Shown here: positions 1 through 63,012 of the stretch, piece after piece
Numbering within the stretch: position 1 is the first letter of the stretch
How the letters are laid out: each line of letters opens with the position of its first letter
DNA from: Alphaproteobacteria bacterium
GTDB lineage: Bacteria > Pseudomonadota > Alphaproteobacteria > Rs-D84
Assembly: GCA_017618175.1 (NCBI GenBank)
Contig: JAFZUT010000006.1
Span: 1 to 63,012, forward strand
DNA length: 63,012 bases
Direction: 5' to 3'
Notes under the pieces: generated by a model
Databases searched by the model: none
What the model was told of the DNA's origin: nothing
Seen by the model: the letters and a program-made list of their open reading frames with translations, nothing else
Made by a program: the position numbers and the translations under genes

Positions 1-55
1 CGATTTGGCAATGGCGCGGATATGCCGGTTTTTGTATTCAAACTGGTCAAAAAAA

Positions 56-147
56 GGTACCTTTTTGTCCACCACTTTTTTTAGAAAATGTGATTCAGTA
101 AAATCAATGACTTACGAAATCTTGCGGGGTGGTCAAAAAAAGGTACC
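56..147. promoter_or_regulatory. Putative invertible promoter segment, type A (locus 1)
   Basis: GGTACC palindromic cores with A/T tracts at 56-61 and 142-147, 86 bp apart. The internal sequence recurs at 6092-6183, 25230-25321 and 41115-41206. IHF-consensus AATCAATGACTTA at 102-114; TGT-TACACT -10-like box at 152-160. Confidence 0.75.
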
Positions 148-188
148 TTTTTGTTACACTGTAATGCGAGGAATAAAGGGGAAATATT

Positions 189-710
189 ATGAAACAAGCA
201 TTATTCATCGGTGCAATTGCATCCGTTTTATCAATCAATGCATTTGCAGAAACAACAACATCAACCGTAACGTCCAAAAATTATGTCGATGCCCAAGACG
301 CATTGAAACAAAATAAAATACCTGCGGCGGGAACAAACGCATCAACCCCCGGTGAAACCGTTGTTACATATACAACAACCGGTAACGGTGTAATCGGTGA
401 ACGTGGAATTTTTAATTATGATACGGACTATGATTGGGACAATCACTCGGTGGAAACGGGACACGAAGGTGACTTGGTCACCGCCGGCGATGTTATGCCA
501 CAACTGGATTATTTATCCGGTGTTTACCAGGTTGATAAATATTGCACAGAATGGTCCGGAACACCGTATACGGATGAAAACTGTTTATTATGGTATATCG
601 GGGATAATATTATGGGCCCCTACAATCTGTGCCAAACTGACTCAGATTGCGATGGATGTGATGGTTGTATTAACGGCCTTTGTAAAGACGATGGAAGATG
701 TGATACGTAA
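189..710 (+). CDS. Secreted Cys-rich protein, dispersed family member 1 (MKQALF-type signal peptide)
   Basis: Signal peptide, conserved TVTSKNYVDAQDALKQ block, CxEW..CLLW motif and Cys-rich tail; AAGGGG RBS upstream. Confidence 0.85.
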   Translation: MKQALFIGAIASVLSINAFAETTTSTVTSKNYVDAQDALKQNKIPAAGTNASTPGETVVTYTTTGNGVIGERGIFNYDTDYDWDNHSVETGHEGDLVTAGDVMPQLDYLSGVYQVDKYCTEWSGTPYTDENCLLWYIGDNIMGPYNLCQTDSDCDGCDGCINGLCKDDGRCDT

Positions 711-742
711 AAAAACATGGGTGCGAATTCGCGCCCAACTTT

Positions 743-2122
743 TTAATCTTTCTTATCTTCTTCCTTTTTAACCGGTTCTGCCATTTTAGACATTGCGATA
801 ACCATTTCCATACCGCGTTGTAATTGGTAATCGCGCGCGTCTTTTTCCGCATCGGTTAAATCTTTCTCGTCATCTTCATCATCTTTTTTACCGGATTTTT
901 CTTTGGCTTTTGCTTTCTTTTCCGCCGCATCGTTCTTTAATGAATTGCGGAAAGACGCCTCGGAATACGCGCTTTCGCGCTTTTCAATTGGTTCGACTTT
1001 GGATTGCAAAACTTCAACATCCGGGGTAATCCCAGTGTTTTGAATAGATGTACCACTGGGCGTATAATACCGTGCAATTGTTATATGAATTGCCGTTCCG
1101 TCCCCAAGTGGCTTTTGTTGTTGCACACTGCCCTTGCCAAAACTTTGTGAACCCATAATAATTCCGCGCTTATTATCTTGGATTGCGCCGGCAACAATTT
1201 CCGATGCCGATGCAGACCCATGATTGATAAGCACAACCAACGGTTTCCCATTTGTTAAATCACCGGGTTTGGCAAAACTTCTGTCTATATCGGTTTTATT
1301 TTTTCCGCGGGTTGATACAATTTCCCCGCCATCCAAGAAAGCATCGGATACATCAATTGCCGCGGTTAAATATCCCCCCGGATTGTTTCGCACATCCAAC
1401 ACATAGCCTATCACTTTCTTTTTTTCCAAAGATTTAATTGCTTCACGCAAATCTTTTGCGGTTGTTGCCCCAAAGTCAGATATACGAATGTAGCCAATTT
1501 TGGGCGCATCGGTGTCCGCATCCGCCAATTGTTTTTCTTCAAACTTTATCGATTTAACCTTGATAATTGCACGTTTAAGTGTGATTGTTTTCGGTTCATT
1601 ATCACCAGAAATAACGGTCAGTTTTACTTTCGTTCCGGGTTTGCCCTTCATTTTCTTGACTGCCTGATTCAATGTCAAATCAAACACCGGTTCATCATCA
1701 ATATGTGTAATATAATCGCCGGCCTTGATTCCCGCATTATCCGCCGGTGTATCATCAATCGGTGAAATAACGCGCACCGCCCCACGGTCAGATGTAATTT
1801 GAATGCCCAGTCCGCCAAATTCACCGGTGGATTTATCATTAAAATCTTTGAAATCGTCTTTGTTCAAATACGAAGAATGCGGGTCCAGCGCCGACAGCAT
1901 CCCGTTCATTGCGGCCTCAAGCATCTTGCGTTCATCGGCTTCTTCGACAAAGTTTTCACGCGACACTTCGAACACCAGTGCCAATTTTTTCAATTCATCA
2001 TAAATCTGTTCATCGGTCAGGTGCTCAATCGGTTCTTCTTTTTTATTCTTATCGGCCGCCGCCGCAACATTCACCACCACCGGCAAACACATTACACACA
2101 AAACCAGAATTTTTTTCAACAT
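743..2122 (-). CDS. ctpA: Carboxyl-terminal processing protease, S41 family
   Basis: LDPHS motif, PDZ domain (GLGIQI), DVRNNPGG, SASASEI and FGKGSVQ motifs. Confidence 0.92.
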   Translation of the reverse strand: MLKKILVLCVMCLPVVVNVAAAADKNKKEEPIEHLTDEQIYDELKKLALVFEVSRENFVEEADERKMLEAAMNGMLSALDPHSSYLNKDDFKDFNDKSTGEFGGLGIQITSDRGAVRVISPIDDTPADNAGIKAGDYITHIDDEPVFDLTLNQAVKKMKGKPGTKVKLTVISGDNEPKTITLKRAIIKVKSIKFEEKQLADADTDAPKIGYIRISDFGATTAKDLREAIKSLEKKKVIGYVLDVRNNPGGYLTAAIDVSDAFLDGGEIVSTRGKNKTDIDRSFAKPGDLTNGKPLVVLINHGSASASEIVAGAIQDNKRGIIMGSQSFGKGSVQQQKPLGDGTAIHITIARYYTPSGTSIQNTGITPDVEVLQSKVEPIEKRESAYSEASFRNSLKNDAAEKKAKAKEKSGKKDDEDDEKDLTDAEKDARDYQLQRGMEMVIAMSKMAEPVKKEEDKKD

Positions 2123-2207
2123 ACCGCTTTCCTTTTTTTATTATTTATAACGGCAGTCTAGAATAAAAAAGTCGCATTCGCAACCTATAAATCAGGGATT
2201 AACCCAA

Positions 2208-3110
2208 TCAAAAAGCACGTGCGTATTTATGCAGCATATTGATTTGCTGTTTCAATCGATTCAGCATTTTGGCACGCTCATTTTTACCCAAATATTGAAC
2301 GTCCGTGACTTCTTCGTTCATTTGTTCCAATACATTGGCCACATTATGATATTGGGCAATTTGTTTCCAACGCGCATCATCAACAAAGTCCGCCGGTAAA
2401 TAACGCGCATCACGATAATTCAAATATCGCGCACGCACCGCATCCGCCACACCCAAATCATACGAATAAGATCGCAACATATCATAATGCAGGAAAGATG
2501 TCCCGACATCGGTAAAATCAATCACATTAAACTTTTTTGCCTTAAAATCATACAGAACATTATCTTCGAACAAATCGCCATGCACCCAAACAATACGCGT
2601 TTCGTACGAAGTATTTATAATATGCTGATATACTTTATCTATAAATTTTATTTCATCCCGGACAGATTTAATTTCTTTTTTTGAAAAATATTGGTCAACA
2701 TCTTCAAGAAAATCTTCCAAGTATTTAACATCCAACCCACATTCCATTTTATATTCTATTGGGTTTGGAATAACATCTATGGAATGCATATCCGCGTAAA
2801 ATTGCGCCAAAGAATCTATTACTTTTTCACGTGCATGGTCATCCAGGCCTCGAAACAACAACGGCGTCAACGGCACACCGGAAACACGTTCTTCCAACAC
2901 GCAGAAACGTTTGGAATCAATGGATTTAATGTGTGGCACGCCGTATGCATTATTACCAATATCGTGTAATTTTTGAATCGTGTCGGCGGCCCTTTGCTGA
3001 CGCGCCAACCATTCACGTTTTTGTGATATACTGCGCCCCGGCAAAGGTTCTTTGGAAACAAATTTGCCGTCCGCAATTTTTACCAAACTTTCGCGACCGT
3101 GTTTAATCAT
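2208..3110 (-). CDS. Aminoglycoside phosphotransferase/choline kinase-like protein
   Basis: HGDLxxxNV and IDF kinase motifs. Confidence 0.7.
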   Translation of the reverse strand: MIKHGRESLVKIADGKFVSKEPLPGRSISQKREWLARQQRAADTIQKLHDIGNNAYGVPHIKSIDSKRFCVLEERVSGVPLTPLLFRGLDDHAREKVIDSLAQFYADMHSIDVIPNPIEYKMECGLDVKYLEDFLEDVDQYFSKKEIKSVRDEIKFIDKVYQHIINTSYETRIVWVHGDLFEDNVLYDFKAKKFNVIDFTDVGTSFLHYDMLRSYSYDLGVADAVRARYLNYRDARYLPADFVDDARWKQIAQYHNVANVLEQMNEEVTDVQYLGKNERAKMLNRLKQQINMLHKYARAF

Positions 3111-3152
3111 ACTTTATTATATAATACAAAAATCATATTTTGTCAAACAAAA

Positions 3153-4229
3153 TCAGTTTTCTTTGAACAGTCTTGCCGGGTCAATTGCTTTATCGCCACG
3201 CCGCACCTCAAGATACATTTCCGGCTTGTTCGGGTTCATACGCCCAACGGGTTCACCCCCCAAAACTTCTTGGCCCACAACGACATCTATATCACCAAGG
3301 TTGGTCATAACGGTATTATAACCGTTTTTATGCGATATAATTATTACACGACCAAATCCCTTGAAACTGTCGGCAAATTTGACAACGCCATCGGCGGGCG
3401 CGGTCACCAACGCATCGGCATTTGTTCGTATACGCCACCCATCAGATTTCAACCCCAGCGCGGTCTTTTCGCCAAAGCGCACCACAACGCGTCCGCGCAC
3501 AGGTTGGTTTAACTTGCGAATTGAAAAACGCGAATCTGATGACATTTGCGAACTCCCTACGCCGGCGGACAATTCCGATATGCTTTTTGCGCGCGCCGAC
3601 AATTCGCGCAATTTTTGCTGTGTTGCCATTTGTTCGCTGCGCAGTTTTTCATTTTGCGCCGAACGCCGCCGCAACAATTTATCCAACAAATCTTTTTCAT
3701 CGCTGTATTTTTTTGCGGTCCGGTCTAATTTTTCTTTTTCAACCGCGCGCGCATCACGAATTTTATCTAACTCTGCGATTTTTTGACCGGCATCGATAAT
3801 CTGTTCATCAAACCCGTCGGCCATTCCGGCCAAGACCGCATTGGTCAATACAAATTCATGCATATTTTCTGCATCAAAACTTGGGTTCGCCGCAATAAAC
3901 ACCATACCCGCCGCCGCATCCGCCACACGCGCCTGGTTTTTTTCCAATTCCGCAACAAGCACCGCCCGCCGCGCATCCAATTCCGCAATTTTCTTGGCGA
4001 TATTGGCACGCAATTCTTCCAACGAAGAAACCTTGCCCGCCGCAGTCACCAATTGTTTTTTCGTTTTGGCCACATCACGGTCGGATGTTTTAACCTGTTG
4101 TTCCAATTGCTTATTTTTCTGTTCGGTCTGTTTAATCTGCGTTTGAATTTTGTCCAGTTCACTTGGCACGGCAAAAACCGAATTTGCCCCCCCCAACAAA
4201 ATCGCCAAAGTCAAAATAAATCGCAACAT
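3153..4229 (-). CDS. envC: EnvC-like murein hydrolase activator (coiled coil plus degenerate M23 domain)
   Basis: Signal peptide, long coiled coil, C-terminal LytM-like domain lacking Zn ligands (DGWRI, YLEVR); lies near ctpA. Confidence 0.75.
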   Translation of the reverse strand: MLRFILTLAILLGGANSVFAVPSELDKIQTQIKQTEQKNKQLEQQVKTSDRDVAKTKKQLVTAAGKVSSLEELRANIAKKIAELDARRAVLVAELEKNQARVADAAAGMVFIAANPSFDAENMHEFVLTNAVLAGMADGFDEQIIDAGQKIAELDKIRDARAVEKEKLDRTAKKYSDEKDLLDKLLRRRSAQNEKLRSEQMATQQKLRELSARAKSISELSAGVGSSQMSSDSRFSIRKLNQPVRGRVVVRFGEKTALGLKSDGWRIRTNADALVTAPADGVVKFADSFKGFGRVIIISHKNGYNTVMTNLGDIDVVVGQEVLGGEPVGRMNPNKPEMYLEVRRGDKAIDPARLFKEN

Positions 4230-5440
4230 TATTTTACAATTACCCGCAGAAAAGTTTTTTTACCACGTTGAACCATTATCTCTGGACGGGGTGCAATGGT
4301 CGTGTGCCAATCCGTAATTTTTTCACCGTTGATTTGAATACCGCCCTGTTCAACCATACGGCGTGCATCAGATTTAGATGCAAACATCCCAATTGCGACC
4401 AAGAAATCAACAATTCCCATCGGCGCGGCCATTTTAATTTCAACGCTTGGCGCATTATCGGCATTTCCGCCACTAAACAACGCCGCCGCCGCGCGCTCTG
4501 CGTTCTCTGCCGCATCGGCACCATGGGCAATTGTTGTTGCCGCGTTTGCCAAAATCCGCTTTGCCTCGTTCAGTTCTGCACCACGCAATTTCGCCAATTT
4601 GTTGATTTCATTGATTGGAATTTCCGTAAATATTTTCAAGAATTTTTCAACCAATTCATCCGGCGTATTGCGGAAATATTGCCAATATTCATACGGTGAC
4701 AATTTGTCTTCATTTACCCAAACGGCATTTCCGGCCGACTTTCCAATTTTATTTCCCGCCGCATCTGTAATTAGCGAAGTGGACAAAACAAACGCTTCCT
4801 TGCCCAATTTTTTGCGGATAAGTTCAATACCCATAACCGCGTTGCCCCATTGATCTGCACCACACAGTTGCAACACACAACCATATTTTTTATACAGTGT
4901 CAAAAAGTCAACCGCCTGGAACGTCATATAGTTAAATTCCAAAAATGTCATACCATTTTCCAACCGGCGTTTCACACTTTCCATAGACAACATACGCGGC
5001 ACGGTGAAATCAGTTCCAAATTCCGCCAAGAAATCAATATGCCCATAATTTTTCATCCAATCGTAATTATCAACAATAATTGCATCCGATTTGCCACGCC
5101 CAAACTTCAAAAATTTTGAATAAGATTTTTTTAACCCCGCAATATTTTTGGACAAAATTTCTTCGGTCATCATTGGCCGGCCCGTATCGCGTCCCGATGG
5201 GTCACCAATGCGCCCGGTTGCACCACCAACCAACATTAATGGCCGATGCCCAAATTTCTGCAACCAACGCATCATCATCACCGGGACAAGATGTCCCACG
5301 TGCAACGAATCCGCCGTTGGATCCGACCCCAAATACGCAGTAATATTTCCGTTATTTAATGCATCGGTCAAACCGTCCATATTTGAACATTGATTGATAA
5401 AACCACGCGCTTCCAATTCATGCAATAAATCATTTTTCAT
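4229..5440 (-). CDS. tyrS: Tyrosine--tRNA ligase
   Basis: DPTADSLHVGH (HIGH), GADQWGN, KIGKS (KMSKS-like) and C-terminal S4 domain. Confidence 0.97.
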   Translation of the reverse strand: MKNDLLHELEARGFINQCSNMDGLTDALNNGNITAYLGSDPTADSLHVGHLVPVMMMRWLQKFGHRPLMLVGGATGRIGDPSGRDTGRPMMTEEILSKNIAGLKKSYSKFLKFGRGKSDAIIVDNYDWMKNYGHIDFLAEFGTDFTVPRMLSMESVKRRLENGMTFLEFNYMTFQAVDFLTLYKKYGCVLQLCGADQWGNAVMGIELIRKKLGKEAFVLSTSLITDAAGNKIGKSAGNAVWVNEDKLSPYEYWQYFRNTPDELVEKFLKIFTEIPINEINKLAKLRGAELNEAKRILANAATTIAHGADAAENAERAAAALFSGGNADNAPSVEIKMAAPMGIVDFLVAIGMFASKSDARRMVEQGGIQINGEKITDWHTTIAPRPEIMVQRGKKTFLRVIVK

Positions 5441-5537
5441 CAAAATCGCCCTTTTTATATTAGTATAATTTTACCAAAATCCGCACGATATTCAATGAAA
5501 AAGTAGCAAAACAAAAATCCGCCCATCAGGGCGGATC

Positions 5538-6041
5538 TTACATCATACAACCCGGTCCGTTAAAACATACCCCATTATTGCCAGAACAACAATAACCACT
5601 CGGACAATCTCGGGCTGAATTGCATGATTGACCAATAACACGTTTTTCAGCCAATTCCCACAAAATACAACTGCTATCAACATGTATCTCACTGTTCCAT
5701 TCTACACAGGTTTTATATGTAACCGTCGTTTCTGGCAGGTTTGTTGCACTTTGTAACAAATCCCGTGTCACCAAGAAATTATCATTACAATCTCCATCAC
5801 CATCCGCATCAGCATCACAAATTCCACGTTCACCCAATACACCCGCTTCATCGGTGTATGTAACAACCGTTTCTCCAACACCGTTTTCCTCGTAATTGAC
5901 CCATGCTTCTGGTATCGTATTTTGTTTCAATGCGTCTTGGGCATCGACATAGTCCCGTGATGTGACGGTGGATGATGTTGCGTATGCATTTAACGCCAAA
6001 ACCGATGCAATTGCACCGATGCTAAGAATTGAAATCCTCAT
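5538..6041 (-). CDS. Secreted Cys-rich protein, family member 2 (MRISIL-type signal peptide)
   Basis: Same conserved N-terminus; body closely similar to 57583-58092. Confidence 0.85.
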   Translation of the reverse strand: MRISILSIGAIASVLALNAYATSSTVTSRDYVDAQDALKQNTIPEAWVNYEENGVGETVVTYTDEAGVLGERGICDADADGDGDCNDNFLVTRDLLQSATNLPETTVTYKTCVEWNSEIHVDSSCILWELAEKRVIGQSCNSARDCPSGYCCSGNNGVCFNGPGCMM

Positions 6042-6091
6042 ATTCCCTTCCTTTGTTATGCTTGTTTGGTATGTTTATATGGTAACAAAAA

Positions 6092-6183
6092 GGTACCTTT
6101 TTGTCCACCATTTTTTTTAGAAAATGTGATTCAGTAAAATCAATGACTTACGAAATCTTGCAGGGTGGTCAAAAAAAGGTACC
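6092..6183. promoter_or_regulatory. Putative invertible promoter segment, type A, flipped relative to its gene (locus 2; predicted ON)
   Basis: GGTACC at 6092-6097 and 6178-6183. On the minus strand it reads TGGACA (6107-6102), 17 bp, TACCAT (6084-6079). Confidence 0.75.
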
Positions 6184-6251
6184 TTTTTGTGACCAGCTAC
6201 CCCACCGCGTCCCGCGGTCCCCCCCTTCACGAAACGTGAAGGGGATTTATA

Positions 6252-6290
6252 AAAAACCGGCGGATTCCCGCCGGTTTTCACTAACCACTA
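6252..6290 (-). repeat. TAGTGGTTAGTGAAAACCGGCGG-N4-CCGCCGGTTTTT hairpin repeat / terminator
   Basis: Reverse-complement copy of the elements at 36055-36093 and 57390-57428. Confidence 0.75.
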
Positions 6291-6307
6291 TCCACTTACA
6301 CTAACCA

Positions 6308-7171
6308 CTAATACAACCCGAACTTGGTTATATAGTTAAATGAAATGCCGATTATAAAATTGCTGCCGTAATGTTCGGCGTCACGCGCCTTGGCACGGCG
6401 ATATTGAACATACGGTCCCATTGTAAAATCACCCCACAGGTTCGTATCCATACGCGCAACTACGCTTAAATCCCGTTCCAAATCTGTGCCAACATATTGG
6501 GAATAGTCCAGATACTCACGATAGTACCCATTTGTTGATAATTTTACCCCATCGCGAACACCGTATTCCAAACGCCAACCGATTTCGGCGGCCAGTTTGC
6601 TGACCTGGTCATGGCCGTATGTGAAATCATATTCATAAACGCCCGCGATATATAATTCTTTGATAATCGGCGAATCAAACACCGAAAAACCGGCCATACC
6701 GCGCAGCACCTTTAACCGGTTGTCCGAATCGTTTGCCGGCACGAATTCCGTTTCATACGCCGCACGCACCATTGGCCCCAATTTGAAAGAATCAAAATCC
6801 CAACACGCATAGTTCAAATTACTGGTCGCCAAGATTTTATCTGCGCTTTCGTTGACCAATGTTTCACCATCATACGGCTTTATCTTTGTCCGACCGTATT
6901 CCATAAACAAAGAATTATCCCAATTGAAACGGTCATGTTTATATTCCAAGGCCGTATCAAAAACACCTTTGATAAATTCTTGATCATCGGCACTTAATGC
7001 AGAAATCGGCGAACCTTGGTATTCCCCCGAATGGCGAACCGTGGTTTTCGACAAATCCAACCCTATTCGGCGAATATTCAAAATCAATTCTTTGCCCGCC
7101 AAATCGACATCGTCTGCATATGCCACGAATGGCAACAACGCCGCACACATAAATACAGAAAATTTTTTCAT
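6308..7171 (-). CDS. Predicted outer-membrane beta-barrel protein (DUF3078/DUF481-like)
   Basis: Signal peptide, amphipathic beta-strands, aromatic C-terminus. Confidence 0.6.
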   Translation of the reverse strand: MKKFSVFMCAALLPFVAYADDVDLAGKELILNIRRIGLDLSKTTVRHSGEYQGSPISALSADDQEFIKGVFDTALEYKHDRFNWDNSLFMEYGRTKIKPYDGETLVNESADKILATSNLNYACWDFDSFKLGPMVRAAYETEFVPANDSDNRLKVLRGMAGFSVFDSPIIKELYIAGVYEYDFTYGHDQVSKLAAEIGWRLEYGVRDGVKLSTNGYYREYLDYSQYVGTDLERDLSVVARMDTNLWGDFTMGPYVQYRRAKARDAEHYGSNFIIGISFNYITKFGLY

Positions 7172-7189
7172 AATCGCCCCCATATTAAA

Positions 7190-7807
7190 TTATTTGGAAA
7201 TATACAAAACACCGTCACGATCTTGGTAATGCCACCCGGCATCACGCAATGCAATGGTCAACGCCCCACGTCGCGCCGCCGGCACCCGAAAAGTCATTTG
7301 ATTTCCATCTATGGTTTTTGTATTCAAATCAATGCCATTATCCGCCGCGATTCTGCGCACGCGCGACCAATCAGTCAATTTATTATTCAACGACACAACA
7401 ACCCACGATTCGTGTCCGGCATCATCACCATCGCCCAACCAATTTTGAACACCGTTCGACACCAACCAATTCCGCGCCGCGTTGCGGTCAACCGTCATTG
7501 TTATATTTGCAGAATATGTCGTATCAGATTGTTTTTCGCCACTTATTCCTGAACTTTCAATAAGTGTTGTTAAAACGGCGGACTTTTCATTTTTAACCGC
7601 GGCACGCAACGCGGTTGAATCCGCATATGGCGATAATGCGTCAACAATAACCTGACGCCGGGCCTCATCCATTGCCATATTTTTTGCCGTTGCGGCGGTA
7701 TCACTGGTCACATTAACATGCGCGGTCGCGGTCAACGGTGCACCAAATGCGCCACCGGCCACCAACATAACCGCACCAAACACCAAGAATCTTATTATCG
7801 TTCCCAT
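7190..7807 (-). CDS. Secreted hypothetical protein
   Basis: Signal peptide; 205-aa ORF co-oriented with its neighbours. Confidence 0.7.
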   Translation of the reverse strand: MGTIIRFLVFGAVMLVAGGAFGAPLTATAHVNVTSDTAATAKNMAMDEARRQVIVDALSPYADSTALRAAVKNEKSAVLTTLIESSGISGEKQSDTTYSANITMTVDRNAARNWLVSNGVQNWLGDGDDAGHESWVVVSLNNKLTDWSRVRRIAADNGIDLNTKTIDGNQMTFRVPAARRGALTIALRDAGWHYQDRDGVLYISK

Positions 7808-24682: not shown

Positions 24683-25189
24683 TTAGCAGAACTGGTCTGT
24701 GCAAAAACCATTTACACATGCCCCACCACAAGAAAAACCATGACCGGCGCAATCGTTATCCGTATCACAGGACACCACGTCCCTTCCGTTCCACGGATCG
24801 TTACAATCATACGATGGTTCGCCCACGGCCATCAATAAACAGTTATTATTCGAATCATATTCCGAGCAATATACATTTGGCATTGCGTTATATACACATT
24901 CTGTTGCACGTGCTGCAACATCCGCCGTCACCAATTTATTCGCATCTGTATTCTCGTTATACCTGTTTCCGGCATATATTCCGCGTTCACCGATTGTGCC
25001 GGCGGTAGATGTATATGTGACAACGGTATCACCCGGCGTAGCACTGTTCGTGCCGGTGACGGGTATTTTATCTTGTTTCAATGCATCTTGGACATCGACA
25101 TAGTCCCGTGATGTGACGGTTGAACTTGTTGCGTATGCGTTGAACGCTAAAACTGATGCAATTGCACCAATGAATAATGCTTGTTTCAT
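24683..25189 (-). CDS. Secreted Cys-rich protein, family member 3 (MKQALF type)
   Basis: Likely start at 25189 after the shared RBS; body closely similar to 62490-63008. Confidence 0.85.
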   Translation of the reverse strand: MKQALFIGAIASVLAFNAYATSSTVTSRDYVDVQDALKQDKIPVTGTNSATPGDTVVTYTSTAGTIGERGIYAGNRYNENTDANKLVTADVAARATECVYNAMPNVYCSEYDSNNNCLLMAVGEPSYDCNDPWNGRDVVSCDTDNDCAGHGFSCGGACVNGFCTDQFC

Positions 25190-25229
25190 AATATTCCCCT
25201 TTATTCCTCGCTGTACAGTGTAACAAAAA

Positions 25230-25406
25230 GGTACCTTTTTTTGACCACCCCGCGAGATTTCGTAAGTCATTGATTTTACTGAATCGTATTTTCTAAAAAA
25301 AGTGGTGGACAAAAAGGTACCTTTTTGTCCACCATTTTTTTCAAAAAATTTTCTCAGTAATTTCAATGGTCCAATTTTTGACCGAGGTGGTGGTCATAAA
25401 GGTACC
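25230..25406. promoter_or_regulatory. Double switch: segments A and B back to back with three GGTACC sites, between divergent family genes (locus 3)
   Basis: GGTACC at 25230, 25316 and 25401; perfect 32-bp palindrome at 25303-25334. Confidence 0.75.
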
Positions 25407-25456
25407 TTTTTGTTACCATATAAACATACCAAACAAGCATAACAAAGGAAGGGAAT

Positions 25457-25912
25457 ATGAGGATTTCAATTCTTAGTATCGGTGCAATCGCATCCGTTTT
25501 AGCATTAAATGCATTTGCAACAACATCAACCGTCACATCACGGGATTATGTGGACACCCAAGATGCATTGAAACAGGATTTAATTGAGACAGATGATACC
25601 TATTGGGATGGTTATTTTGGTGTGACTGATACATTGGTAAGTAATGATGCGGAAGATGGCGATGGTATACAAGGCTATAAGTATGGGATATTTACAGATT
25701 CGTATGATATCAATAATATGGGGGGAGTTAGGTGGATTCTTTATAATGAAGACGCTTATCTGATTGGTAAAACCATACCAACCACTGCTGCCACCGCGGA
25801 CCTTATAAGAAATGCGACAAAAATGACATGCGTAGAGTATATAGGTGGACAGCAAAATGGTGTTCCGGAAGATTGCCTTCTTTGGCGAATGCCGGATAAC
25901 GCGGTTTGGTAG
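25457..25912 (+). CDS. Secreted protein, family member 4 (MRISIL type)
   Basis: Conserved N-terminus, TCVEY..CLLW motif, no Cys-rich tail. Confidence 0.85.
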   Translation: MRISILSIGAIASVLALNAFATTSTVTSRDYVDTQDALKQDLIETDDTYWDGYFGVTDTLVSNDAEDGDGIQGYKYGIFTDSYDINNMGGVRWILYNEDAYLIGKTIPTTAATADLIRNATKMTCVEYIGGQQNGVPEDCLLWRMPDNAVW

Positions 25913-40120: not shown

Positions 40121-41062
40121 TTAATTCTTGTTCCACAACCAACAATTTGCATCGGTGTGAGTTGCATCATATGTTGTTGTACCATCCGGCCACCCGGCAC
40201 AGGTCATTTTCGCCTGGGCATATGTGGTGACACCGGCCATTGTTGGTATTTTCGCGGAATCATTTGTCGCATTGTACGCCGCCGCACCGGTATATGTCGC
40301 AACCGAACCACCAACCACACCATTTGAATTATATGTGACAACATTACCCGCCGTCCCGGTCGGCAGTGTCACCTGGTTATTACTAATCGCCGCCATAACC
40401 GCACCCATTGTGGGAATGGAAATTTTTTGAATTGCCTTTTGATTGGCCGTTAAATTTGATGCTTGGTAATTTGGTACATCACTTTCCTCGATTATCTTAC
40501 GTTCACCAACAACATTGTCCATACCCGTTCGAGTAGCGATACCTGTTCCTTTGACACGAATATTCAAATAGTCAAACGTGCTCCCCCCGGATCCTTCCGT
40601 ATAAGCATTTGTAACTCCAGAACCATTAATTTCTCCATAACCAGATTTTGGAATCCTATTTTGCAAATAATTATTCATATTGTCCCAAATTAATCGTGTT
40701 TCGTTTGCCACGGCACGAACCGTCGGTATCATTTTATCTGTGATTGTGGTACTCAATACTTCTACGCTATCGCTAAAACCCCACAACCCATCACCGTCAC
40801 TTACGATACCAGCAATTTCATTGTTCACAATACCGTATTCATCCCCAACCAATCCATTTGTTGTGTCGTATGAAACAACGGTGGGGATTTCAAAATCATC
40901 TCCATAGGCACTAAATTCCATAGTGTCCGCATTGATTAAATCTTGTTTCAATGCATCTTGGGCATCAACGTAACCCCGTGAAGTCACGGTTGATGATGTT
41001 GCGTATGCATTGATTGATAAAACGGATGCAATTGCACCGATGCTAAGAATTGAAATCCTCAT
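40121..41062 (-). CDS. Secreted protein, family member 5 (long form, MRISIL type)
   Basis: Likely start at 41062; conserved N-terminus; ends in TCAGW..CWLW. Confidence 0.85.
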   Translation of the reverse strand: MRISILSIGAIASVLSINAYATSSTVTSRGYVDAQDALKQDLINADTMEFSAYGDDFEIPTVVSYDTTNGLVGDEYGIVNNEIAGIVSDGDGLWGFSDSVEVLSTTITDKMIPTVRAVANETRLIWDNMNNYLQNRIPKSGYGEINGSGVTNAYTEGSGGSTFDYLNIRVKGTGIATRTGMDNVVGERKIIEESDVPNYQASNLTANQKAIQKISIPTMGAVMAAISNNQVTLPTGTAGNVVTYNSNGVVGGSVATYTGAAAYNATNDSAKIPTMAGVTTYAQAKMTCAGWPDGTTTYDATHTDANCWLWNKN

Positions 41063-41114
41063 ATTGTCCCTTCCTTTGTTATGCTTGTTTGGTATGTTTA
41101 TATGGTAACAAAAA

Positions 41115-41206
41115 GGTACCTTTTTTTGACCACCCTGCAAGATTTTGTAAGTCATTGATTTTACTGAATCGCACTTTCTAAAAAAAGTGATGGACAAAAA
41201 GGTACC
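41115..41206. promoter_or_regulatory. Putative invertible promoter segment, type A (locus 4; predicted OFF)
   Basis: GGTACC at 41115 and 41201. The interior is the reverse complement of 6098-6177 while the gene-proximal leader is nearly identical. Confidence 0.75.
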
Positions 41207-41229
41207 TTTTTTTTGACCAGTTTGTACAC

Positions 41230-57428: not shown

Positions 57429-57450
57429 GTTTTCAAACTGGTCAAAAAAA

Positions 57451-57541
57451 GGTACCTTTTTGTCCACCATTTTTTTCAAAAAAATTTTTCAGTAATTTCA
57501 ATGGTCCAATTTTTGACCGAAGTGGTGGTCATAAAGGTACC
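57451..57541. promoter_or_regulatory. Putative invertible promoter segment, type B (locus 5)
   Basis: GGTACC at 57451 and 57536; interior nearly identical to 25322-25400; flanks match locus 1. Confidence 0.75.
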
Positions 57542-57582
57542 TTTTTGTTACACTGTAATGCGAGGAATAAAGGGGAAATATT

Positions 57583-58092
57583 ATGAAACAAGCATTATTC
57601 ATTGGTGCAATCGCATCTGTTTTATCGATCAACGCATACGCAACTTCATCCACGGTTACATCCAAAGATTACGTAGATGCCCAAGACGCATTGAAACAAG
57701 ACACTATACCCGAGGCGGGTGTCAATGCCGATGAAAACGGTGGCGGAGAATCGGTTGTTACATATACTGATGCAGAGGGCGTACTTGGTGAACGAGGAAT
57801 TTGTGATTCGAATGCAAATGCCGATGGTGGTTGTGATGATAATTTCTTAGTTACGCGGGATTTATTGCGAAATGTGGAAAATCTGCCAACACGCACGGTG
57901 ACATATAAAACGTGTTATGAATGGTCTGGAACCCCGCATACAGATGCAAATTGTATATTATGGAACTTATCGGATAGGAAGGTAAAAGGTTGCATTGAAA
58001 GCGGTATAACCGGTGAAAACGTATGTCAAAACGATGCGCAATGCTGTAGCAGAATGTGCGTCGATGGTTATTGCATGGAACCACAATATTAG
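57583..58092 (+). CDS. Secreted Cys-rich protein, family member 6 (MKQALF type)
   Basis: Conserved N-terminus; body similar to 5538-6041. Confidence 0.85.
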   Translation: MKQALFIGAIASVLSINAYATSSTVTSKDYVDAQDALKQDTIPEAGVNADENGGGESVVTYTDAEGVLGERGICDSNANADGGCDDNFLVTRDLLRNVENLPTRTVTYKTCYEWSGTPHTDANCILWNLSDRKVKGCIESGITGENVCQNDAQCCSRMCVDGYCMEPQY

Positions 58093-62462: not shown

Positions 62463-62491
62463 AAAAATACCCGCATCTGCGGGTATTTTTT
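62463..62491. terminator. Bidirectional intrinsic terminator
   Basis: AAAAATACCCGCA-TC-TGCGGGTATTTTT. Confidence 0.75.
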
Positions 62492-63008
62492 AGCACTCAC
62501 CTATACCGCAAATGCCATTGTTACATACTTCGCTGTGGCATCCGTTATTTGGATCGTACCCTGGACAATCAGCATCCACCGTGCAACGTACCGTACCATA
62601 CCACGGTTCATCACAATTATATGATGGTTCACCAACCCCCATCAATAAACAGTTATTATTGGAATCATATTCCGTACAATATATATTTGGCATCGAATTA
62701 TACACACATTCTGTTGCACGATATGCAACATCCGCCGTCACCAATTTATCCGCATCGGTACTTGAATCATAACCATTTGTTCCATCAAAAATTCCACGTT
62801 CACCGATTGTGCCGGCGGTGGATGTATATGTTACAACGGTGTCGCCGGGTGTTGATGCATTCGTTCCGGTCGCCGGTATTTTATTTTGTTTCAATGCATC
62901 TTGGGCATCAACATAATCTTTGGATGTAACCGTGGATGAAGTTGCCAGAACTGAATTGATTGTAATAACCGATGCAATTGCACCGAATGCAAGAATTGAA
63001 ATTCTCAT
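62490..63008 (-). CDS. Secreted Cys-rich protein, family member 7 (MRISIL type)
   Basis: Conserved N-terminus; body similar to 24683-25189; upstream region lies beyond the window end. Confidence 0.85.
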   Translation of the reverse strand: MRISILAFGAIASVITINSVLATSSTVTSKDYVDAQDALKQNKIPATGTNASTPGDTVVTYTSTAGTIGERGIFDGTNGYDSSTDADKLVTADVAYRATECVYNSMPNIYCTEYDSNNNCLLMGVGEPSYNCDEPWYGTVRCTVDADCPGYDPNNGCHSEVCNNGICGIGEC

Positions 63009-63012
63009 ATTC

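Follow-up and report, generated by a model that had tools for sequence, protein, structure and literature searches.

The 63,012-nucleotide contig JAFZUT010000006.1 of an Alphaproteobacteria bacterium of the Rs-D84 lineage (assembly GCA_017618175.1), hereafter the window, contains five loci at which short DNA segments bounded by inverted repeats lie directly 5′ of paralogous genes for small secreted proteins. We conclude with considerable confidence that these elements are switches driven by an invertase. We further propose, with a probability of roughly 0.55, that the recombination site beside the gene would double as a promoter spacer, with the -10 box fixed in the gene leader and the -35 box carried on one end of the segment, as first proposed from the sequence of one of these loci (locus 2; Table 1). 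The assembly to which the window belongs, as contig C26, totals 891,628 bp in 29 contigs and is rated 95.9% complete; the 13 metagenome runs that contain the window come from animal gut.

Short segments between inverted repeats at gene leaders

On the minus strand at locus 2, TGGACA is followed after 17 bp by TACCAT, with a TG two bases ahead of the latter, just as the original prediction had read these boxes. This is the sole sigma-70-like match in positions 5900-6350 (9/12 in the promoter scan), and the distance between its two hexamers lies within the 16-18 bp of a sigma-70-type promoter. The 17-bp spacer is almost wholly one dyad site, made of the half-sites ACAAAAAGGT and ACCTTTTTGT, and this site is one of many.

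The core of the sites, AAAGGTACCTTT, is present in 11 exact copies in the window, compared to 0.09 expected; the search returned 12 matches including one with a single mismatch, a number that none of 100 shuffled sequences reached. These cores form pairs 86 or 85 bp apart plus one triplet, and so make up the five loci. Across the genome, 17 contigs carry a total of 52 site cores, and a segment end meets a gene leader at 27 junctions; the targets are many and dispersed, and they have one inverted-repeat consensus. Site spacing is 86 bp for one type of segment (A) and 85 bp for another (B). All 52 cores read GGTACC, with a central TA, so that the central dinucleotide is not asymmetric; at the sites of relatives in the genus it is AA. 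By likeness to the hix sites (PMC3798978), each site would span 26 bp with the crossover at its centre.

The 27 junctions fall into a few types. Most (18/27) present to the gene the 'b' end of segment A, with TGGTCA 19 bp from the -10-like box (TGATCA in one case). Four belong to a variant segment A′ (TGGTCA at 20 bp) and three to segment B (TGGTCA at 17 bp). Only one invertible copy, locus 2 of the window, presents the 'a' end (TGGACA at 17 bp), and one variant copy has GGGACA at 17 bp together with an outer site whose core is changed to CGTACG. The strings that the original prediction gave for the window's other junctions, TGGTCA-19 at loci 1, 3-left and 4 and TGGTCA-17 at the segment B loci, match as well, and the leader start that it described as fixed is found throughout the genome, as TGT-TACCAT in 8 of the 27 leaders and as TGT-TACACT in the other 19.

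Copies with a variant core, CGTACG or CGTACC in place of GGTACC, were observed at L005:790-830 (contig C9), L044:3480-3500, C2:~51620 and C9:~41530. Those of L005 and L044 each pair with a GGGACA-type junction. Such copies may be fixed in one state.

The original prediction had also pointed to a difference of 5 versus 7 bases in the A-tract of the spacer and suggested that slippage could tune it. The difference is real; the tuning is not supported by the data. The T/A tract beside the core has 5 bases in 27/27 leader half-sites and 26/26 'a' ends, 7 in 20/20 type-A 'b' ends, 6 in 4/4 A′ ends and 3 in 3/3 B ends. Because tract length is fixed for each segment end, the difference is no sign of slippage. 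Outer half-sites alone vary (5, 6, 7 or 8 bases), and they lie outside any promoter spacer.

Segment orientation within and between genomes

The genome has 18 further copies of type A, and the segment at locus 2 lies in the opposite orientation to all of them. When locus 2 is compared with locus 1, the segment is reversed relative to the gene and the similarity switches exactly at both site centres; in the window, the TGGACA end of an invertible segment faces a gene at locus 2 only. These within-contig orientations rest on 141-nt words that cover a whole site.

When one genome per species was scanned, the same core turned up in two other species. RGIG3338, a sister species from goat, has the same 86-bp segment A, and the metagenome-assembled genome (MAG) Red_deer_4_mag_124 has 133-bp segments whose interior sequence is unrelated. 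At one syntenic locus (C3:7347-7433 in our genome, L042:4759-4845 in RGIG3338) the segment is reversed between the two species, with switch points at the site centres. The flanks are 88-93% identical over long blocks on both sides and near-identical beside the outer site. Within these conserved flanks (C3:7200-8100 versus L042:4101-5000) the two species differ in which paralogue supplies the family gene and leader; switch genes are therefore replaced or diverge much faster than their surroundings.

Both orientations are present in all three genomes: junctions with the GGACA end toward the gene amount to 2/27 in this genome, 2/6 in RGIG3338 and 5/28 in the red-deer MAG. In addition, a single segment lies between two divergent leaders at L051:22-155 of the red-deer MAG and on a metagenome contig from a third organism (L030), so that a flip would take the TGGACA or TTGCAA end away from one gene and present it to its neighbour in a two-way toggle. 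Taken together, these comparisons between loci and species indicate that the segment probably flips.

Since TA is self-complementary, the crossover itself cannot tell inversion from deletion, and the symmetric sites should permit deletion as well as exchange between any of the 52 sites. At L029:~975-1000 no segment is present and the half-site of the leader abuts one of the outer type, a layout that looks like what deletion between two sites would leave. The gene at L029 is 93% identical to that of L023, which keeps its segment.

Many contigs of this MAG terminate inside switches, their ends overlapping by 141 nt, and several converge on one leader; the switches therefore break the assembly. 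Contig C21 (11.4 kb) begins and ends with 141 nt that are mutual reverse complements, both being a switch plus leader pointing outward. The whole contig may thus lie between inverted copies and could itself be invertible. Contigs that four runs yielded over window positions 1-7500 likewise stop at the repeats (for example, one ends at 5947 and sequence restarts near 6255-6282), and a loose contig end at 6102 may stem from any one of the several loci with the same 59-nt leader. These interrupted contigs display no mixed orientation, but they are uninformative on this point.

Locus 2 (compared over 5512-6314) coincides with a break in gene order. It is flanked here by tyrS and a DUF3078 outer-membrane gene, which lie 13 kb apart in the sister species (G061:C9:14499-27752), where no simple ortholog of locus 2 is present. 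Directly outside its outer site is a GC-rich module of ~85 nt (6194-6285) that recurs in this genome at C5:~300-395 and C13:~210-300. The module consists of a pair of hairpins, CCCACCGCG..CGCGG and CCCCTTCACGAAACGTGAAGGGG, after which comes a CCGGCGG..CCGCCGG stem resembling a terminator, and beyond it the three loci run into unrelated DNA. We found no alternative arrangement of locus 2 in the assembly, the C5 and C13 copies of the module continuing into different DNA.

A candidate invertase of the Mpi family

The genome encodes four tyrosine and three serine recombinases, and only one of them is a small serine recombinase (C9:153-752, 199 amino acids). It contains a Resolvase domain (PF00239, 113.4 bits, E = 1.3e-32, residues 3-144) and, at its C-terminus (residues 165-196), helix-turn-helix (HTH) matches that fall below the cut-offs (HTH_23, 18.5 bits against 24.6; HTH_7, 16.9 bits against 23.8). 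It thus combines a catalytic serine domain with a C-terminal HTH, the latter by weak matches. Against NCBIfam NF009949, the 'master DNA invertase Mpi family', it scores 270.4 bits (E = 9.1e-81) over residues 3-197 and model positions 2-196 of 203, a near miss 1.6 bits short of the cut-off of 272. NCBI gives the Mpi family name to relatives from Alphaproteobacteria MAGs that are 71% identical. The best solved relatives are Gin-type invertases (4m6f at E = 7e-8), and the RVSS of our protein aligns with the RVST of Gin.

The recombinase gene adjoins a variant switch copy, from which it is divergent. Of 60 congeners sampled, 50 have a homologue (79% identity for the best), and in 6 of 11 inspected loci of relatives (L013-L018) the recombinase gene again stands divergent beside a small secreted-protein gene. 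The intergenic regions of these six loci hold two sites, one a dyad that differs in sequence and has AA at its centre, the other degenerate. None of the 60 sampled congeners has the exact junction pattern, and a related site pattern gave one to four matches per genome in five genomes, no more than a reversed control in three of the five. The expansion to 27 loci thus belongs to this lineage in particular.

We regard the palindromes as very probably the recombination sites of this Mpi-family serine invertase. The original prediction had already read them as putative recombination sites, and the reversed segment at the syntenic locus of the sister species, the presence of both orientations in three genomes and the family membership of the enzyme speak for that reading.

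A candidate promoter split across the crossover

We propose the following mechanism, in which the steps of enzyme, site and flip rest on family membership, site architecture and comparative orientation. The Mpi-family invertase would bind the 26-bp dyads built from ACAAAAAGGT and ACCTTTTTGT and cut at their central TA, and the 85-86-bp segment between two sites would flip. The gene side of the proximal site would hold the fixed TG-extended -10-like box, and only one end of the segment would carry the upstream promoter half, an A-tract followed by TGGACA. With this end toward the gene, the recombination site would become the 17-bp spacer and complete a sigma-70-type promoter. With the other end toward the gene, the leader would meet a weaker TGGTCA, 19 bp away for segment A and 17 bp away for segment B, with no A-tract. 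In the assembled genome locus 2 alone among the invertible copies would be in the ON-like state. The transcriptional effect of the flip is what we infer from these motifs.

Several observations argue for this arrangement, which was the central claim of the original prediction. The crossover point falls within the would-be spacer, and the -35-like box stands at 17 bp from the TG-extended -10-like box. The criteria of the promoter scan were applied to 25 of the 27 loci, the remaining two having been set aside as identical over the 120-nt key, and locus 2 gave the sole junction-spanning match. In the same 25 loci the pattern scan found no sigma-70-like match inside A, A′ or B segments on either strand, that is, no complete promoter within the invertible region. 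Where a TGGACA end faces outward, no -10-like box stands at 17 bp; GACCAG or CCACCA is there instead.

The box itself belongs to the promoter vocabulary of this genome. A strict sigma-70-like match ends 9-31 nt upstream of 24 of the 41 transfer RNA (tRNA) genes, compared to 53 of 2000 random windows, and the -35 boxes of these genes include TGGACA (2) and TTGCAA (6). The tRNA promoters are very regular, with a -35 box of TTGCAA, TTGAAA or TTGATT, a spacer of 16-17 bp and a -10 box of TATAAT or TAAAAT that mostly ends 9-17 nt ahead of the mature 5′ end. They are well suited to train promoter predictors for this lineage.

The TGGACA end is also what different segments have in common. Segments A and B, like the otherwise unrelated 133-bp segments found in the red-deer MAG, all have TGGACA at one end, preceded at a distance of 3-4 nt by an A-tract of 6-8 bases. 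There is little agreement among their opposite ends (TGGTCA.., GTAACA, CGAACA, ATAACA). The A-tract stands at the position reported for the proximal UP-element subsite (Estrem et al. 1999). In the third organism a -35-like TTGCAA with an A7 tract 3 nt upstream faces a -10-like TAACAT. Relative to the site centre, the -35-like box is here shifted outward from 7 to 8 nt and the -10-like box inward from 10 to 9 nt, which leaves the spacing at 17 bp.

The red-deer 133-bp segments (L045, L047, L051) have features of their own. They contain an internal perfect hairpin, CCACGGAATCCGTGG. Immediately 5′ of TGGACA, A-tracts recur three or four times in phase at intervals of ~10-11 bp, which suggests strongly curved DNA.

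Bacteroides Mpi switches and fimS have the promoter wholly inside the flipping segment, and the same could be imagined here. A complete internal promoter would then read out through the TGGACA end, the pairing of TGGACA with TACCAT would be a coincidence, the ON and OFF states would be the same, and transcripts would start inside the segment and include the palindrome. Hin works in this way (PMC3798978), and a paper on Bacteroides speaks only of 'promoter inversions' (PMC4747536). Segments A and B share a central TTGATT/TTGAAA that lies 17-18 bp upstream of the A-tract (TAAAAA/TGAAAA) and points to the TGGACA end; in the variant copy beside the recombinase gene it is directed at that gene, whose own promoter must lie somewhere in the intervening 200 bp. 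However, the TTGATT/TTGAAA pair reaches 8/12 with no T at the last -10 position and was reported by the scans on neither strand. Neither the red-deer MAG nor the third organism has the central motif in its 133-bp segments, whose only common part is the A-tract with the -35-like end box. In addition, a TG-extended -10-like box stands just outside the crossover in 27/27 leaders, something that a self-contained promoter would not need. We therefore consider an internal promoter unlikely.

Another view, to which we give similarly little weight, is that the TG-extended -10, or a TATAAT-like box 5 nt downstream of it, fires in both orientations and that inversion alters only the strength of transcription, through A-tract or curvature or through occupancy of the site by the invertase or another protein. 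The extended -10 in all leaders fits this view, as do the better -10 boxes at +5 in many of them, the red-deer 'off' ends that still score 9/12 and the phased A-tracts upstream of TGGACA in that species. GGACA-end junctions are nonetheless a minority in each of the three genomes, and the 19-bp against 17-bp spacing of segment A is what a strong on/off contrast would use, although neither point argues directly against leakiness.

Least probable is that the repeats are relics without regulatory role, left over from past recombination or mobile elements or serving as protein operators, with the opposite orientations as rare historical accidents: 25/27 OFF-like junctions and the absence of the exact junction pattern from the sampled congeners would suit such relics, but the exact boundaries of the reversed segment in the sister species, the 5/28 junctions in the other state in the red-deer species, the toggle arrangements between divergent genes, the intact Mpi-family invertase kept in a 0.89-Mb genome and the conserved length of the diverged segments A and B (86 vs 85 bp) all stand against it. 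An ordinary transcription-factor operator was likewise rejected as an account of the palindrome, as it leaves segments flipped exactly at site centres unexplained.

Returning to the promoter split across the crossover, a number of points weigh against it. The -10-like boxes are weak (4/6), and many leaders have a better TATAAT, TGTAAT or TATAAA 5 nt downstream, for which there is no -35 in either orientation. An extended TG can lessen a promoter's need for a -35, so the OFF state may be leaky, and the red-deer 'off' ends GTAACA and ATAACA still score 9/12 with the TG. Shuffles of the same 450 bases average 0.8 promoter matches, so that the match at locus 2 is, taken alone, not above chance. 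The -35-like boxes lie within the outer recombinase half-site, and their conservation could therefore reflect recombinase binding. In the six genus relatives with single switches (L013-L018) the corresponding TTGATT box would come to lie 14-16 bp from the best -10-like boxes, so the 17-bp rule is not general. As for the enzyme, we know of no precedent for a serine invertase acting on an 86-bp segment. The RGIG3338 ortholog of the recombinase (93%) is not beside a site, and the red-deer MAG, with the same site core, has only a small serine recombinase of 45% identity; a closer recombinase gene may be missing from that assembly.

The secreted-protein family

We aligned 16 members of the protein family encoded downstream of the switches. 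They share a signal peptide, a TVTS(R/K)DYVD..ALKQ stretch, a variable middle and a conserved cysteine pair around NC(L/I)LWN, with a cysteine-rich tail in some. The family proteins gave no Pfam or NCBIfam family match and no usable match in the ESM Atlas. We found 107 relatives of the family protein, all unnamed or 'hypothetical', and the named sources are Alphaproteobacteria MAGs. A structure model reached a mean predicted local distance difference test (pLDDT) score of 50.3, too low for a structure search. A switchable, fast-changing family of secreted proteins suggests exposure to host or phage.

Features of the window

The sites, segments, junctions and family genes of the window are listed in Table 1. 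Locus 3 differs from the others in that two divergent family genes each face a TGGTCA end, and both TGGACA ends meet at the middle site.

Table 1. Switch loci, junctions and family genes in the 63,012-nucleotide window (site centres given as the two flanking positions)
Feature	Positions	Strand	Description
Candidate junction promoter, locus 2	6079-6107	-	-35-like TGGACA 6107-6102, putative spacer of 17 bp 6101-6085, TG-extended -10-like TACCAT 6084-6079
Gene-proximal site, locus 2	6082-6107		26-bp dyad, centre 6094/6095 (GGT/ACC); left half is leader, right half is 'a' end of segment A
Segment A, locus 2	6095-6180		86 bp centre to centre; TGGACA end toward gene (ON-like)
Outer site, locus 2	6168-6193		centre between 6180 and 6181
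Gene presumably controlled, locus 2	5538-6041	-	167-amino-acid secreted protein: signal peptide, TVTSRDYVD..ALKQ motif, C...NC(I/L)LW pair, cysteine-rich tail
Locus 1	46-157		outer site centre 58/59; segment A 59-144; leader site centre 144/145; TGGTCA-19 bp-TACACT (OFF-like)
Locus 1 junction TGGTCA-19	130-157	+	matched string
Family gene of locus 1	189-710	+	173 amino acids
Locus 3	25220-25419		three sites, centres 25232/25233, 25318/25319 and 25403/25404; segment A 25233-25318; segment B 25319-25403
Locus 3-left junction TGGTCA-19	25220-25247	-	matched string
Locus 3-right junction TGGTCA-17	25391-25416	+	matched string
Family gene left of locus 3	24683-25189	-	168 amino acids
Family gene right of locus 3	25457-25912	+	151 amino acids
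Locus 4	41105-41216		leader site centre 41117/41118; segment A 41118-41203; outer site centre 41203/41204; OFF-like
Locus 4 junction TGGTCA-19	41105-41132	-	matched string
Family gene of locus 4	40121-41062	-	313 amino acids
Locus 5	57441-57554		outer site centre 57453/57454; segment B 57454-57538, 85 bp; leader site centre 57538/57539; TGGTCA-17 bp-TACACT
Locus 5 junction TGGTCA-17	57526-57551	+	matched string
Family gene of locus 5	57583-58092	+	169 amino acids
Further family gene	62490-63012	-	5′ end beyond the window; its switch would lie past the window end; evidence includes repeats D3-D5

Comparison with known systems

Among known systems, the nearest counterpart is Bacteroides fragilis Mpi together with the dispersed promoters that it inverts. 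Mpi acts there on 13 regions, 7 of which are polysaccharide promoters (PMC4747536). Our system resembles it in having a small serine recombinase and many dispersed promoter regions, bounded by inverted repeats, on which the enzyme would act in trans (PMC4747536), and the recombinase matches the Mpi family model over its full length. The host, by contrast, is a tiny-genome alphaproteobacterium and not a member of the Bacteroidales, and the 27 switches all precede one family of small secreted proteins, not glycan operons. Bacteroides invertible segments are roughly 170-230 bp long and contain the whole promoter, whereas here they are 85-86 bp and apparently carry only its upstream half.

The enzyme is of the same superfamily as those of the Hin/hix and Gin/gix systems. 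Site polarity of Hin/Gin-type invertases rests on the central core pair, unlike in our sites with their self-complementary TA. As in hix (PMC3798978), the sites are ~26-bp dyads; their half-sites contain A/T tracts, and the 2-bp crossover, whose position here is presumed, is central. Hin flips ~1 kb and requires a 65-bp Fis-bound enhancer ~100 bp from a site (PMC3798978), whereas the interior between bound half-sites is here ~60 bp. A Fis enhancer of 65 bp (PMC3798978) cannot fit in 86 bp centre to centre, and no match to the Fis-type domain (PF02954, HTH_8) was found in the 95.9% complete genome. Three HU/IHF-family genes are present.

Similarities extend to systems with other enzymes. Mycoplasma penetrans, with the mpl genes of the P35 family, also combines a small genome with many paralogous surface-protein genes, each with its own short invertible promoter and switched singly; there the recombinases are tyrosine recombinases, and the elements are ~135 bp with the promoter wholly inside. 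In the circles of insertion sequences (IS911, IS30, IS2), recombination joins a -35 on one DNA end to a -10 on the other. These are transposition intermediates, unlike the conservative and reversible site-specific inversion that we propose. Slippage in repeats is another source of phase variation, in which the activity of a promoter depends on whether its spacing is 17 bp or a non-optimal length. Such systems depend on polymerase errors in repeats, whereas the tracts in our spacer half-sites do not vary and the change in spacing would come from inversion.

The very short segment, the crossover site as spacer, the upstream half alone on the segment and the target family seem to be new. Our literature searches returned no paper on such switches in Alphaproteobacteria or Enterousia, although the supplementary tables of inverton surveys (e.g. 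PMC11602134) might list them, and in these searches neither the design nor the term 'split promoter' was found for phase variation. Of known invertons, >75% are <300 bases (PMC11602134); switches of 85-86 bp are far shorter than most.

Implications

Beyond the split promoter itself, a bolder reading is possible, which we hold tentatively and, as a whole, think rather doubtful. The elements would be the smallest natural serine-invertase switches yet (85-86 bp), in which the site is the spacer and the segment carries only a UP-like A-tract and a -35. One enhancer-independent Mpi-like enzyme would run ~27 of them, and through them a gut symbiont of 0.89 Mb would display one or a few hypervariable secreted proteins at once. 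The symmetric TA could in addition delete segments or swap genes.

If the promoter is indeed split across the crossover, promoter inversion would be reducible to moving ~20 bp, the A-tract and the -35, across a crossover that doubles as spacer, and an 86-bp segment without room for an enhancer would challenge the picture of serine invertase synapsis. Moreover, one switchable, fast-evolving family of secreted proteins would take up ~3% of the gene set in a gut symbiont that is otherwise very reduced. Such a share of genes would point to strong pressure from host immunity or phage on an organism that is not yet cultivable.

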